Positions 12,001 through 18,000 of a stretch of 64,000 nucleotides of DNA are shown here, piece by piece. This DNA comes from Escherichia coli (GTDB taxonomy: Bacteria > Pseudomonadota > Gammaproteobacteria > Enterobacterales > Enterobacteriaceae): NCBI RefSeq assembly GCF_017348835.2, contig NZ_CP072312.1. One strand, written 5' to 3'. Numbering within the stretch: the stretch's first letter is position 1; each line of letters opens with the position of its first letter. The position numbers are program-made.

Positions 12001-15000
12001 TCCGCGAGATTTTTCGCAGTATGTTGACCGCAAATACAGTCTGGCTGAACTGATCCACACCTGGTCAGATTTGGCGGGACTGACATACGATGGTTACGAT
12101 CCGACCCGTTCTCTGGTGAATCCGCAATTCAGGGAAACCCCCCGCTGGATTGGAAATCCGTATAAAAAGAATGGGCTCACTGATTTCGACACTCTTCCGT
12201 ATGGTGAGCCATAGTATTTTCTTATCTTCGGTTCCGTTCTGAAGGCAGGAGGATGTGTTTTCCTCTGCTGTCCGGTGGCCTCCAGGGATGGTACCACCTT
12301 CTGCTGTCCGGTGGCCTCCAGGGATGGTACCACCTTCTGCTGTACTCTGTTATCATAATGAGATAAGCAGGCAGATACCGGTAAATATGAAAAATATCAG
12401 AACTGAGTTTATTCCCCGCTTTAACCTTACATTATGCTTCCCCCGTTACTGGATGACGTGGACAGGTATCGGTATTATCTGTGTGTTTGCAATGGTCCCC
12501 CCCGCACTGAGAGATCCATTGTTGGGAAAATTGGGCATGCTGGTTGGGCGTCTGGGGAAAAGCGCACATCAACGGGCCTTGATTAATTTATCGCTTTGTT
12601 TTCCGGAGTACAGTGATAAAGAAAAGGAGAATATCGTTGATGCCATGTTTGCAACAGCCTCCATGGCCGTTGTGCTTATGGCTGAATTAGCACTGTCCGG
12701 GCCTGATAAAATTTCGCATCGTATACGCTGGAATGGTCTGGAGATTGTGGAGAAGATGGCACAGAACAATGAAAAGGTCATTTTTCTTGTGCCACATGCC
12801 TGGGGAGTGGATATTCCCGCAATGCTGATGGCTGCGTCGGGCAGAAAAATGGCAGCGATGTTTCATAACCAGAGAAATCCGGTGGTGGATTATGTCTGGA
12901 ACAGTGTTCGTCGTCGTTTCGGAGGAAAACTGCACGCACGTAATGACGGTATTGCCTCCTTTGTCCGCTCAGTCCGGCAGGGATACTGGGGATATTATCT
13001 TCCTGATCAGGATCATGGCCCGGAATTCAGTGAGTTTGCAGATTTTTTTGCGACGTATAAAGCAACTTTACCGGTTATCGGACGGCTCAGCAGGATCAGT
13101 GGTGCACGGATAATACCGCTTTTCCCTGTTTATGACGGAAAGACCCATCATCTGACTATTCATGTCAGCCCGCCACTTGCTATACGACAGAAGAGTGATG
13201 CTCATATTGCGCGACAGATAAACGAAGTGGTTGAAAATTTCGTTCGTCCACATCCTGAGCAGTATACGTGGATCCTCAAGTTGCTGAAAACGCGTAAAGA
13301 AGGGGAAGAGGATCCTTACTGAGGCAGGTTTTTCAGGATAATGAGCTTACCCAGCAATAGTGGACACACGCTAAGTGAGTAAACTCTCAGTCAGAGGTGG
13401 CTCATATGACAAAAGTAAGCGTACAGCCTGAACCGTCTGGTCAGAATCTGACGAATTAGACAAAGTGGTGTCCACCAAATAAGTAGTGGGAACCAAAGTA
13501 TCAGATATGCAGAAAAATGTGACTCCCGGCAGGCGAAAAGGCTGCCCTAATTATCCTCCCGAATTTAAACAGCAGCTCGTTGCTGCCTCCTGTGAACCCG
13601 GGATATCCATCTCAAAACTTGCTCTTGAAAATGGCATTAACACCAATCTGTTGTTCAAATGGCGACAACAATGGCGCGAGGGAAAGCTGCTATTACCTTC
13701 TTCAGAGAGCCCCCAGCTACTTCCTGTGACTCTCGATGCAGCTGCCGAACAGCCAGAATCGCTCTGAACCGCCCCGGGTTTCCTGGAGAGTATTTTATCT
13801 GTGAACTCAGGCTGCCAGATCATTATTTCCGATGGAAGCATAATAAGCTTTTTCTGCTTCTGCCGGAGGAATATGGCCCAGCCTTTCCAGCAATCGTCGA
13901 TTGTTATACCAGTCCACCCACGTGAGTGTGGCCAGTTCCACTTCTGCACGGTTTTTCCAGCTCTTACGGTGTATTACCTCCGCTTTGTAAAGACCATTGA
14001 TGCTCTCCGCCATCGCGTTGTCATACGAGTAACCTGTACTCCCTGTTGATGCCAGCAGTTTTGCTTCTTTTAGTCGCTCCGTATAGGCCAGTGATACATA
14101 CTGAGAACCTTTATCACTGTGATGGACTGTGCCGGACGGCCGACGGGCCCACAACGCCTGCTCCAGTGCATCCTGAACCGCCCCGGAAATCCTGGAGACT
14201 AAACTCCCTGAGAAAGAGGTAAACAGGATGACTAAAAATACTCGTTTTTCCCCCGAAGTCCGTCAGCGGGCGATTCGTATGGTTCTGGAAAGTCAGGATG
14301 AATATGACTCACAGTGGGCGGCAATTTGTTCCATTGCCCCAAAGATTGGCTGTACGCCGGAGACTCTGCGTGTCTGGGTTCGCCAGCATGAGCGGGATAC
14401 CGGGAGTGGTGATGGTGGACTCACCACCGCTGAACGTCAGCGTCTGAAAGAGCTGGAACGTGAAAATCGTGAACTGCGCCGCAGTAACGATATCCTTCGC
14501 CAGGCTTCCGCTTATTTTGCGAAGGCGGAGTTCGACCGCCTCTGGAAAAAATAATGCCACTGCTGGATAAGCTGCGTGAGCAGTACGGGGTCGGACCGGT
14601 ATGCAGCGAACTGCATATTGCCCCGTCAACGTATTACCATTGTCAGCAACAGCGACATCATCCGGATAAACGCAGTGCCCGTGCGCAGCACGATGACTGG
14701 CTGAAGAAAGAGATACAGCGCGTATACGATGAAAATCACCAGGTATACGGTGTGCGTAAAGTCTGGCGTCAGTTGTTACGGGAAGGTATCAGAGTGGCCA
14801 GATGCACTGTGGCACGTCTCATGGCAGTTATGGGACTTGCCGGTGTTCTCCGGGGTAAAAAGGTCCGCACTACCGTCAGCCGGAAAGCCGTTGCCGCATG
14901 CGACCGCGTAAACCGTCAGTTCGTGGCAGAACGTCCAGACCAGTTGTGGGTGGCTGATTTTACCTGGGTAAGCACATGGCAGGGCTTCGTCTATGTGGCG

Positions 15001-18000
15001 TTCATCATTGATGTGTTCGCCGGATACATCGTGGGATGGCAGGTCTCATCATCCATGGAAACAACATTCGTGCTGGATGCACTGGAGCAGGCGTTGTGGG
15101 CCCGTCGGCCGTCCGGCACAATCCATCACAGTGATAAAGGTTCTCAGTATGTATCGCTGGCCTACACGCAGCGGCTTAAGGAAGCCGGATTACTGGCATC
15201 AACAGGGAGTACTGGCGACTCGTATGACAACGCGATGGCGGAGAGCATCAATGGTCTTTACAAAGCGGAGGTAATACACCGTAAGAGCTGGAAAAACCGG
15301 ACAGAAGTGGAACTGGCCACACTAACGTGGGTGGACTGGTATAACAATCGACGATTGCTGGAAAGGCTGGGCCATATTCCTCCGGCAGAAGCAGAAAAAG
15401 CTTATTATGCTTCCATCGGAAATAATGATCTGGCAGCCTGAGTTCACAGATAAAACACTCTCCAGGAAACCCGGGGCGGTTCATCCAGCACGAATGTCGT
15501 TTCCATGGACGATGAGACCCGCCACCCCACGATGTATCCGGCAAACACATCAATGATGAACGCCACATAGACGAAGCCCCGCCATGTGCTTACCCAGGTA
15601 AAATCAGCCACCCACAACTGGTCTGGACGTTCTGCCACGAACTGACGGTTTACGCGGTCGCATGCGGCAACGGCTTTCCGGCTGACGGTAGTGCGGACCT
15701 TTTTACCCCGGAGAACACCGGCAAGTCCCATAACTGCCATGAGGCGCGCCACTGTACATCTGGCCACTCTGATACCTTCCCGTAACAACTGACGCCAGAC
15801 TTTACGCACACCGTATACCTGGTGATTTTCATCGTATACGCGCTGTATCTCTTTCTTCAGCCAGTCATCGTGCTGCGCACGGGCACTGCGTTTATCCGGA
15901 TGATGTCGCTGTTGCTGACAATGGTAATACGTTGACGGGGCAATATGCAGTTCGCTGCATACCGGTCCGCCCCCGTACTGCTCACGCAGCTTATCCAGCA
16001 GTGGCATTATTTTTTCCAGAGGCGGTCGAACTCCGCCTTCGCAAAATAAGCGGAAGCCTGGCGAAGGATATCGTTACTGCGGCGCAGTTCACGATTTTCA
16101 CGTTCCAGCTCTTTCAGACGCTGACGTTCAGCGGTGGTGAGTCCACCATCACCACTCCCGGTATCCCGCTCATGCTGGCGAACCCAGACACGCAGAGTCT
16201 CCGGCGTACAGCCAATCTTTGGGGCAATGGAACAAATTGCCGCCCACTGTGAGTCATATTCATCCTGACTTTCCAGAACCATACGAATCGCCCGCTGACG
16301 GACTTCGGGGGAAAAACGAGTATTTTTAGTCATCCTGTTTACCTCTTTCTCAGGGAGTTTAGTCTCCAGGATTTCCGGGGCGGTTCACAATGCTGAAAAA
16401 CAAACATGCATAATAAGTCACAATTATGAATTGTGATTTCTTCTATAAAAAAGAGACCACTGCAATATGTGATCTATTGTATTATTTCATAATTGTTAAA
16501 GCCACTTCACAGTATGCTCACATTGTACGGATATATTCGTAATGTTTTTTATATCGAATGAACGACAGAAGTTGTGGAGATTTTATGAAAGTAATTAGCA
16601 TGAAATTTATTTTTATTTTAACGATTATTGCTCTTGCTGCTGTTTTTTTCTGGTCTGAAGATAAAGGTCCGGCATGCTATCAGGTCAGCGATGAACAGGC
16701 CAGAACGTTTGTAAAAAATGATTACCTGCAAAGAATGAAACGCTGGGACAACGATGTTCAACTTCTTGGTACAGAAATCCCGAAAATTACATGGGAAAAG
16801 ATTGAGAGAAGTTTAACAGATGTTGAAGATGAAAAAACACTTCTTGTCCCATTTAAAGCTGAAGGCCCGGAGGGTAAGAGAATGTATTATGGCATATACA
16901 ATTGTGAGGAGGGATATGTTGAATATGCGAATGACTAATACACTGTTATAAAGGCTGCATAAAAAGGCCGGAATCCCGGCCCTTATATTATCGCTTACCA
17001 CTTTCTTTAATGTGAATTTCACCAGGAAGCAGTATCTGGTACTCTTTACCAGAAAACATCGCCCCGAGCCTTGTGAGCGACTCTCCGATGATGCCACGGT
17101 GAGTGCTGGCGTTAAAATCGTATTTATCATCATATGAACGAACAACGCCTGTGCTGGATATAATTGCTCATTCTGTTGTTGATAGATAATAACTTTATCA
17201 AGTAATTTAATACTATCCATTCCATTAACTCTTTTTAAAGATAAAAACTGTATCATAGTTTGTTTAAATAACATAGATAATCTTTACAAGATCATTTCAG
17301 AAATCTATATCATATAAAAAGCCAATATGTTATTTATATACTAACGTTCACGTAAACTTTCATTAATAGTTTCCTTTAATGGACTAAGAAGATAGCTGAT
17401 AACACTACGCACCCCGGTTTTTATTTCTGCCATAACAGTCATTCCAGCTGTAACAGGGATTTTTTTTCTTTCTCCCTGTATATCATTCCGATCAACAGAT
17501 ATAATCACGTTAAATACAAGCCCTGTATCCGGAACAGAAACAGAATCTGCAGTTATATTTTTTACTTTCCCTGTAAGGTAACCATGACGTGTATATGGAT
17601 ATGCATCTACTTTAATAACGACCTCCTGTCCAGGTTGTATAAAACCGATATCCTTGTTAAGTACAGATGCTGTTACTTCGAGAATATCATTATCAGGGAC
17701 AATAATCATCAGCGTTTCTGCTGTTGTGACAACACCACCTTCTGTATGTATATTTAACTCCTGAACAGTACCACTCACAGGAGCTTTAATAAAAGATGAT
17801 GCTTTTCTCTGCCTGTTTTTTTCAAGCTCATGCTCCAGCAACACAATGTTATCTGTTGATTTTCTGTGCTTCTCGATAATTTCACTTCTGAAGATATTCG
17901 TCTCCAGTGCCAGTTCTTCCCGCACAAGTTCTATTTCTTTTTCAAGTTGAGAAACCTGTGCAAGCCAGACTGCATGTTCATTTTTTGCCTGAATATAGCT

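Follow-up and report, generated by a model that had tools for sequence, protein, structure and literature searches.

A complete IS629/IS1203-type insertion sequence lies inside an older, inverted IS629 in the 64,000-nt stretch of Escherichia coli DNA analysed here (the window), and the 3-bp sequence TCC is present at both of its junctions. From sequence comparison, we consider it very probable (roughly 0.9) that this locus is a nested transposon insertion, made in situ on a pO103-type plasmid by ordinary IS3-family transposition. Both the element and the mechanism are already known, and the nest is an ordinary by-product of transposition.

Structure of the nested locus

We used the copy at 5748-7057 as a BLAST query against the whole window. 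Three uninterrupted full-length IS629 copies were found (5748-7057, 14174-15483 and 24847-26156), along with two minus-strand fragments that match IS nucleotides 902-1310 at 14173..13765 and 1-909 at 16387..15479. (The second match runs 5 nt too far by chance, into the end of the inner copy; the fragment proper is 15484-16387.) The nested locus is organized as follows.

13765-14173, minus strand: 3′ fragment of the outer (older) IS629, 409 bp, IS nucleotides 902-1310
13765-13789, minus strand: outer right terminal inverted repeat, within the 3′ fragment
13807-14154, minus strand: ORF for the C-terminal part of outer orfB (Pfam rve_3, rve_2 and the C-terminal half of rve)
14171-14173: left copy of the target-site duplication, TCC, IS nucleotides 902-904 of the outer copy, read directly
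14174-15483, plus strand: inner complete IS629/IS1203-type element, 1310 bp, gap-free and full-length
14174-14198 and 15459-15483: inner terminal inverted repeats, 22 of 25 positions matching
14228-14554, plus strand: inner orfA (Pfam HTH_Tnp_1, E=2.9e-12)
14509-14625, plus strand: inner ALIL frameshift-stimulating pseudoknot (Rfam RF01497, 120.3 bits; gathering score 50)
14546-14551, plus strand: inner A6 slippery run, directly 5′ of the orfA stop
14554-15441, plus strand: inner orfB (Pfam HTH_21, 2.7e-18, and rve, 1.5e-26)
15444-16007, minus strand: ORF for the N-terminal part of outer orfB; its last 12 codons read into the inner-copy end
15484-15486: right copy of the target-site duplication, TCC, read directly from the sequence
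15484-16387, minus strand: 5′ fragment of the outer IS629, 904 bp, IS nucleotides 1-904
15936-16052, minus strand: outer ALIL pseudoknot (Rfam RF01497, 116.1 bits)
16007-16333, minus strand: outer orfA, intact; protein identical to inner OrfA
16363-16387, minus strand: outer left terminal inverted repeat, within the 5′ fragment

The two outer fragments overlap by IS nucleotides 902-904, which read TCC on the plus strand. When the insert 14174-15483 and one TCC are removed, 13765-14173 joins 15487-16387 to give exactly 1310 bp, and the rebuilt copy aligns to 5748-7057 with no gaps and 9 mismatches (99.3%). By BLAST, the 3′ fragment is 99.0% identical to nucleotides 902-1310 of that copy and the 5′ fragment 99.3%. 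All four IS629 copies in the window, with the outer one rebuilt, are thus exactly 1310 bp long. The chance of a 3-bp junction match by itself is 1/64. An earlier note on this DNA had claimed a complete IS629 within an older inverted IS629 with a 3-bp duplication, to be checked by this same alignment. The reconstruction and the empty site described below bear the claim out, and its figures (409, 904 and 1310 bp), the TCC and the coordinates are all correct.

The copies have the hallmarks of the IS3 family. ORFs and Pfam matches reveal overlapping orfA (HTH) and orfB (rve DDE core) genes, the A6 run and ALIL constitute a predicted -1 frameshift signal, the imperfect inverted repeats have the form 5′-TG...CA-3′, and the inner copy has a duplication within the 3-4 bp range of the family (TCC, single at the empty site). 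Orthologous IS629 copies are annotated in RefSeq as programmed-frameshift coding sequences. The length of 1310 bp and an identity of at least 95% to RefSeq-named and published copies assign the elements to IS629/IS1203: the window copies differ from a RefSeq ‘IS1203 family’ copy at 49-57 nt (about 96% identity), inner-type copies differ from another pO157 copy at 13-15 nt, and the window copies are 99.4-99.8% identical to those of plasmid pF2_18C_FIB, which its authors name ‘IS1203 (IS629 variant)’ (PMC6985150).

The inner copy, whose ends read TGAACCGCCCCGG...CCGGGGCGGTTCA, is intact as judged from its sequence, with both inverted repeats, orfA, the A6 run and ALIL, and the full orfB. The outer copy retains both ends, an intact orfA and the frameshift signal. 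Its orfB is broken after codon 174/175, and the Pfam rve match ends at profile position 53 of 102. We take D194 and E230, in ORF 13807-14154, to be DDE residues from what is known of the IS3 family, and by this assignment the break in the outer transposase gene separates the first catalytic aspartate from the second. Because this gene is split, the outer copy has lost its autonomy.

The empty site and alternative explanations

We regard the empty site in related plasmids as the decisive evidence for a nested insertion. Positions 12500-17800 of the window (5301 bp) were used as the query. In at least 14 pO103-like EHEC/aEPEC plasmids, including pO103 (NC_013354) and pF2_18C_FIB (CP043544), the two-piece matches span exactly 3988 bp, so the same locus is exactly 1313 bp shorter and the outer copy is uninterrupted. 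TCC is single in these orthologous copies. Without 14174-15486, the window aligns gap-free over 3988 bp, with 7 mismatches to pF2_18C_FIB and 34 to pO103. The former is the nearest relative, with an identity to the window of 99.96-99.98% across about 48 kb. Only four structural differences separate the two, the 1313-bp insert among them, and relative to this plasmid there is a breakpoint at copy 5748-7057.

In a search of 5,426 complete RefSeq E. coli genomes with a 100-nt sequence spanning the nested junction, no genome matched it in a single piece. (Three matches that cover at least 80% of this query were rejected, as they are two-piece joins, 246-562 bp apart, within ordinary copies.) Similarly, no PLSDB plasmid record reaches 80% coverage of the 5.3-kb query. 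Since the nested junction is in no complete genome and the window is nearly identical to the empty-site plasmid pF2_18C_FIB, the insertion is recent and private. The configuration around the outer copy, with a truncated ISEc8 tnpA on one side and integrase/cmi sequence on the other, is common to about 19 sequenced plasmids.

Two IS629 subtypes, 27-30 nt apart and differing mostly within IS nucleotides 808-1283, coexist in the window; subtypes with 4-5% divergence have been published (PMC3271280). Both outer fragments are of the type of 5748-7057 (copy A), and the whole inner element is of the type of 24847-26156 (copy C). The inner copy has 30 mismatches to the outer copy, is 97.9% identical to 5748-7057 and has 4 mismatches to 24847-26156. 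As it belongs to the other subtype, it came from another copy and not from the outer one. The likely donor, based on near matches, is 24847-26156 or a similar chromosomal copy. The inner copy differs at 2 positions from the pF2_18C_FIB counterpart, and it has private variants at nucleotides 1127-1128 that are absent from the other window copies; a copy identical to it was found neither in the window nor in complete RefSeq genomes, where the best match is 99.9%. For the outer subtype, only 13 records contain a copy with an identity of 99% or more; those listed at 99.5-99.6% are all on pO103-like plasmids, to which this subtype appears to be restricted.

These comparisons also indicate that gene conversion clearly occurs among IS629 copies, and it explains why IS copies at orthologous sites are about 30-fold more divergent than their flanks. 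The resident pO103 copy has 32 differences from the outer copy here, as against 2 in the flanks. Relative to pF2_18C_FIB, the outer copy has 6 differences (IS nucleotides 418, 632, 635, 641, 644 and 1044), which straddle the insertion point, as against 1 difference in the 2678 bp of flanking sequence. A patch of four of the six, at 632-644, equals the variant in a pO145 copy, so some recombination has acted on the outer copy too. It is therefore not strictly proven that the insertion occurred at exactly this place and not elsewhere. All three observations would be expected if the nest had formed on the chromosome or another plasmid, and then moved in by homologous recombination or gene conversion through its 409-bp and 904-bp arms. 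However, the rarity of the outer subtype, and its location on pO103-like plasmids among the listed records, make a chromosomal nested donor unlikely, the nested junction is absent from every complete genome searched, and this scenario requires one more event. We thus consider such an import improbable, and insertion in situ the preferred explanation.

An assembly artefact, in which the strain's IS629 copies were mis-joined or collapsed, has an even lower probability. IS629 is a classic source of misassembly, as the window has no fewer than four copies and a host genome typically tens of them. However, mis-joins driven by repeats switch inside homologous sequence, whereas the junctions observed here lie exactly at IS termini, have a 3-bp repeat and join sequences without homology. 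Furthermore, the inner and outer copies have opposite orientations and different subtypes, the private variants of the inner one argue against a re-used consensus, and the closed plasmid pOkiPb01711_1 independently has such a structure at another position (see below). Least probable of all is a shuffling of fragments by homologous inversion between inverted IS629 copies that imitates a nest: IS629-mediated rearrangements are evident on the plasmid, with one breakpoint at 5748-7057 and three copies without target duplications, but homologous recombination can neither fuse an IS end to the interior of an IS nor make a 3-bp duplication, the outer fragments and the inner copy each have the markers of one subtype throughout, and the DNA on either side is collinear with that of the empty-site plasmids; the exact-terminus junctions and the duplication already effectively refute this idea.

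Flanks of the outer copy and order of events

The DNA on the two sides of the outer copy is of different origin.

13414-13764, plus strand: left end of ISEc8 (IS66 family) and the first 258 of the 381 nt of its tnpA (orfA), 351 bp, 99.1% identity
16388-16938, plus strand: right flank, with the final 26 bp of a gene for a site-specific integrase, intergenic DNA and cmi; not IS66
16558-16938, plus strand: listed ORF of cmi (colicin M immunity); the annotated start maps to about 16585

The identity of the ISEc8 sequence was taken relative to the annotated ISEc8 of pOkiPb01711_1 (L002 6241-6591). The truncated tnpA forms an ORF (13486-13767) whose TGA stop comes from the outermost 3 nt of IS629; its product matches Pfam HTH_Tnp_1 (E=1.7e-12), and the orthologous coding sequence is an IS66-like TnpA in RefSeq. 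A complete ISEc8 has tnpA, tnpB and tnpC between inverted repeats. Here the element stops after its first 351 bp, and no further ISEc8 sequence was found in the window, including beside the other IS629 copies. The sequence is thus a remnant, not an element. On the other side, the right flank is 100% identical to positions 11475-11887 of comparison sequence L008, where 11500 is the last position of the integrase coding sequence and 11672 the first of cmi; the annotations of pO103 and of pF2_18C_FIB also put cmi at this location.

The triplets that flank the outer copy are CTC on the left and CAA on the right, so this copy has no target duplication. In plasmid p7_12_15B-1, the tnpA breakpoint and the integrase/cmi sequence are 9,524 bp apart. 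The missing duplication, the differing flanks and this spacing together show that the outer IS629 marks the junction of a deletion or rearrangement of about 9.5 kb. The earlier note's view that the older copy landed in an IS66-family orfA therefore fits the left junction, which lies in the ISEc8 tnpA, but does not extend to the right flank. Its chronology is correct in order (ISEc8, then the outer IS629, then the inner one), but its count of three events is too low, since at least four are recorded.

Inspection of their flanks revealed no target duplication for 5748-7057 or 24847-26156 either. Simple inversion between pairs of copies was rejected as the cause of these losses, because no pair has reverse-complement flank triplets. 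According to the literature, IS629 makes duplications of 3-4 bp at targets that are not sequence-specific, and 21 of 47 copies retain the duplication (PMC3271280), with which the mostly missing duplications in the window are in agreement.

We propose the following history. A pO103-type lineage already carried an IS629 (the outer copy, in minus orientation) downstream of lpxM, after an old insertion and a subsequent one-sided loss of about 9.5 kb. Recently, and only in the window's lineage, a second IS629 of the other subtype entered orfB of the resident copy. IS3-family elements transpose by a copy-out-paste-in route via a circular intermediate, of which only the integration product is visible at the locus; by analogy, a circular copy of the donor element probably formed here too and then integrated. 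A staggered 3-bp cut at GGA/TCC (IS nucleotides 902-904), followed by repair, would have generated the TCC duplication. For dating such events, we suggest that order be taken from the nesting topology and not from sequence divergence.

Known counterparts and implications

The nested copies share with IS629/IS1203 of EHEC and Shigella the length of 1310 bp, imperfect inverted repeats of about 25 bp that start with TGAACCGCCCCGG, the orfA/orfB arrangement, the -1 frameshift, the ALIL pseudoknot and a 3-bp duplication with no obvious target consensus. There is no difference in kind, although two subtypes are found side by side here. Nested insertions in general give a relative chronology and are common in IS-rich virulence plasmids; an example of one mobile element interrupted by another is the nested IS30/IS911 element of pSFO157 (PMC7175801). 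In the present case, by comparison, guest and host are the same IS, so that the 2.6 kb contain four compatible ends and inverted repeats of 409 and 904 bp. We found no specific description of an IS629-in-IS629 nest in the literature.

Among records with two IS3 transposases, from which candidates for further nests were drawn, only pOkiPb01711_1 (NZ_AP042674.1, L002 3001-5623) has a true IS629-in-IS629. Plasmids pO145 and pDEC8D-1 were rejected because each has two separate complete copies, and the M11957 plasmid because its complete IS629-like copy is flanked by pieces of another IS3-family element, not of IS629. As in the window, the nest of pOkiPb01711_1 consists of a complete IS629 in an inverted one, within orfB, with a 3-bp duplication, a gap-free 1310-bp reconstruction and an outer copy that has no duplication of its own. 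However, its insertion is at IS nucleotides 1032-1034, its duplication is CCC, and it lies beside espP and a complete ISEc8, and its inner and outer copies are 100% identical, unlike those of the window. The two nests are independent. In pOkiPb01711_1, a circle from the resident element or an identical sibling may have gone straight back in.

An effect of the nest on IS629 activity appears very unlikely, but several can be imagined. The promoter-proximal half of the outer copy could, if expressed, produce extra OrfA and a truncated OrfAB with the DNA-binding domains and one of the three catalytic residues, and these proteins might act in trans to reduce IS629 transposition. There are also alternative candidate transposable units, namely IRR-IRR (13765-15483), IRL-IRL (14174-16387) and a 2.6-kb composite. 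Finally, with two independent cases, one of them with identical copies, IS629 might be self-limiting by preferring to re-insert, inverted, into IS629.

The nested locus has no bearing on any open biological question, and its value is mainly practical. Nesting of the same IS is a pitfall for short-read assembly and for IS-printing PCR. At the same time, the nest indicates recent IS629 activity in its host, and it is a clean strain-specific structural marker relative to the nearest sequenced relatives that could be used in IS629-based typing and outbreak tracing.

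Structure of the nested IS629 pair

A BLAST search with the copy at 5748-7057 as query found three full-length, 1310-bp copies of IS629/IS1203 in the window, one of which (the inner copy) is flanked by two fragments of an older, inverted IS629 (the outer copy). IS1203 is regarded as an isoform of IS629 (PMC3271280), and the authors of the plasmid pF2_18C_FIB named its copies 'IS1203 (IS629 variant)' (PMC6985150).

5748-7057, plus strand: complete IS629 (BLAST, 1310 bp)
14174-15483, plus strand: complete IS629, the inner copy (BLAST, 1310 bp)
24847-26156, plus strand: complete IS629 (BLAST, 1310 bp)
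14173..13765, minus strand: IS629 fragment, IS nt 902-1310 (BLAST), flanking the inner copy
16387..15479, minus strand: IS629 fragment, IS nt 1-909 as aligned (BLAST), flanking the inner copy

The true extent of the last fragment is 15484-16387 (IS nt 1-904), and the final five bases of its match run on by chance into the GTTCA that ends the inner copy. The two outer fragments overlap at IS nt 902-904, which reads TCC on the plus strand at 14171-14173 and again at 15484-15486. An earlier note had described a complete IS629 splitting an inverted one into pieces of 409 and 904 bp with TCC at both junctions, and all of its coordinates and lengths proved right. The alignment that it proposed, of 13765-14173 joined to 15487-16387 against 5748-7057, yields exactly 1310 bp with no gaps and 9 mismatches.

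The inner copy is intact, with the following features.

Ends of 14174-15483: terminal inverted repeats, matching at 22/25 positions and starting TGAACCGCCCCGG
14228-14554, plus strand: orfA (HTH_Tnp_1)
14546-14551, plus strand: A6 run, immediately ahead of the orfA stop
Within 14174-15483, plus strand: ALIL pseudoknot (Rfam, 120 bits)
14554-15441, plus strand: orfB (HTH_21 and rve)

The outer copy retains both ends, the ALIL element (Rfam, 116 bits) and orfA, which encodes the same protein as the inner orfA. Its orfB is interrupted at codon 174/175, between D135 (VADFT) and D194/E230 (HSDKG, AMAES), which are the putative DDE residues by the IS3-family consensus; in Pfam searches the 5′ piece matches only the first half of rve, and the 3′ piece only the second.

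With exact-terminus junctions and a 3-bp duplication lacking a target consensus, the nest is the product predicted by IS3-family transposition, which for IS629 would proceed by copy-out-paste-in via a circle, as in its family. These features agree with the published account of IS629, in which duplications are 3-4 bp long, targets show no sequence specificity and the duplication survives at only 21 of 47 copies (PMC3271280).

Empty sites and recency of the inner insertion

At least 14 listed plasmids align with the 5301-bp region 12500-17800 in two pieces spanning exactly 3988 bp (5301 minus 1313). These include pO103 of O103:H2 strain 12009, pF2_18C_FIB from a pig aEPEC strain published as F2_18C (F2_81 in its RefSeq record), and plasmids from O45:H2, O121 and other O103 strains. 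In both pF2_18C_FIB and pO103 the outer IS629 is uninterrupted, reading ...CAGTGCATCCAGCACG..., and once 14174-15486 is removed the window aligns to them without gaps, with 7 and 34 mismatches, respectively. In neither collection searched does any record reach 80% coverage of the nested 5301-bp query, and a 100-nt junction probe has no one-piece match among 5,426 complete E. coli genomes. Across ~48 kb, the window and pF2_18C_FIB are 99.96-99.98% identical and differ structurally in four places, one of them the 1313-bp insert. The empty site, the absence of the junction from those genomes and the near-identity of pF2_18C_FIB thus indicate that the inner insertion is real, recent and private to the lineage of the window.

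An assembly artefact is an unlikely source of the nest, since the junctions join non-homologous sequence precisely at IS termini with a duplication, the inner and outer elements have opposite orientations and belong to different subtypes, and the same kind of structure occurs in an independent closed plasmid.

Subtypes, donor and order of events

Between the inner and outer copies there are 30 differences, most of them in IS nt 808-1283. The inner copy has only 4 relative to 24847-26156 and 2 relative to the pF2_18C_FIB counterpart of that copy; its variants at IS nt 1127-1128 are private. The closest database match to the inner copy stands at 99.9%, and matches at 99.8% are numerous, both chromosomal and plasmid-borne. 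Given these closer matches, the inner copy did not derive from the element hosting it, and its likely donor is the plasmid copy at 24847-26156 or a similar chromosomal one. The outer subtype is rare: just 13 records contain a copy with 99% identity or more, and every copy listed at 99.5-99.6% is on a pO103-like plasmid.

Resident (outer) copies were compared at window 13765-16387, pO103 locus L001 4266-5575 and pF2_18C_FIB locus L003 16266-17575. Between the window and pO103, 32/1310 nt of this copy differ, beside 2678-bp flanks differing at 2, and the 3′ third of the pO103 copy has the subtype shared by the inner copy and 24847-26156. Such divergence next to near-identical flanks points to gene conversion between IS629 copies, and IS divergence therefore cannot serve to date insertions. 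At 15744-15756 (IS nt 632-644), the outer copy carries a four-substitution patch that is absent from the pF2_18C_FIB orthologue and equals the variant of a copy in pO145 of strain 99-3311 (L005 2002-3311). It also has two private non-synonymous substitutions, at IS nt 418 and 1044; in OrfB they replace V by G towards the N terminus and D by Y towards the C terminus. The pattern resembles a short tract of gene conversion, perhaps with some decay once the copy had been inactivated.

A nest formed elsewhere and imported by gene conversion would account for the six extra outer-copy differences, which lie to either side of the insertion, and for the match of the 632-644 patch to another variant, but the outer subtype is restricted to plasmids and the junction probe detected no such nest elsewhere among complete E. 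coli genomes, making import unlikely. Recombinational shuffling among IS629 copies is less credible still, as recombination between copies cannot make these junctions. We therefore retain a recent insertion of the inner copy into the outer one, whose own history is more complex.

13414-13764: ISEc8 left end with 258/381 nt of tnpA (99.1% identity), left flank of the outer copy

The truncated tnpA ORF ends at a TGA supplied by the IS629 terminus. The right flank is identical to plasmid p7_12_15B-1, starting with the last 26 bp of an integrase gene that lies upstream of cmi. That plasmid has 9,524 bp between the two flanking sequences, a stretch containing other IS66-family elements, an IS629, vapBC and the integrase gene. 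About 50 records share the lpxM-ISEc8 junction at 100% identity, but only 19 have the ISEc8/IS629 junction. Because the outer copy lacks a target duplication (left flank CTC, right flank CAA), no further ISEc8 sequence exists anywhere in the window, and the right flank is not of IS66 type, the outer copy was not a simple insertion. The suggestion that it had landed in an IS66-family orfA thus holds for the left flank (ISEc8 tnpA) and fails for the right (integrase end/cmi), and the proposed three transposition events are too few, the locus recording at least four. ISEc8 entered a site downstream of lpxM and IS629 its tnpA, after which an IS629-associated deletion or recombination swapped the distal side, followed by the private nested insertion.

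IS629 nesting on related plasmids

The other two complete copies also lack target duplications (flanks ATC/CCC at 5748-7057 and AAC/TAT at 24847-26156). Compared with pF2_18C_FIB, the former marks a rearrangement breakpoint: window 1-5747 corresponds to F2 33686-27939 inverted (stcE/etp region). An indel of ~43 bp against the same plasmid lies in a short tandem repeat at ~12255-12310, upstream or at the 5′ end of lpxM; the extended GTG-start ORF has SAVRWPPGMVPP twice, then SAV again, and the indel is a repeat copy-number difference ahead of lpxM. Another, of ~62 bp, at 57769-57784 (F2 16160 to 16223) inside traD, is probably repeat variation near the traD 3′ end.

In pO145 of strain 99-3311 (L005 5132-6714), the left end of an ISEc8-like element is likewise interrupted by an IS629, at another site 163 bp in from its end, and the flanks overlap by ~5 bp. 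Together with the outer copy of the window, this shows that IS629 insertions into IS66-family elements recur on EHEC plasmids. The plasmid of strain M11957 (NZ_CP061338.1, L007 6647-8864) has a complete IS629-like copy between inverted fragments annotated as IS3-family transposase with no match to IS629, a nest in a different IS3-family element, followed by IS30. A second, independent IS629 in an inverted IS629 is found in pOkiPb01711_1 (NZ_AP042674.1, L002 3001-5623), inserted at IS nt 1032-1034 with the duplication CCC. In that plasmid, unlike in the window, the two copies show 100% identity to each other, a pattern that fits a copy going back into the element it came from or into a sibling of the same sequence.

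Nested IS insertions are common on EHEC plasmids (PMC7175801). Our literature search found no paper describing the particular nest of the window. As IS629 makes up an estimated share of well under 1% of such genomes, and insertion into an IS carries no cost to the host, occasional self-nesting is expected, and this nest is real, well resolved and already known in kind.
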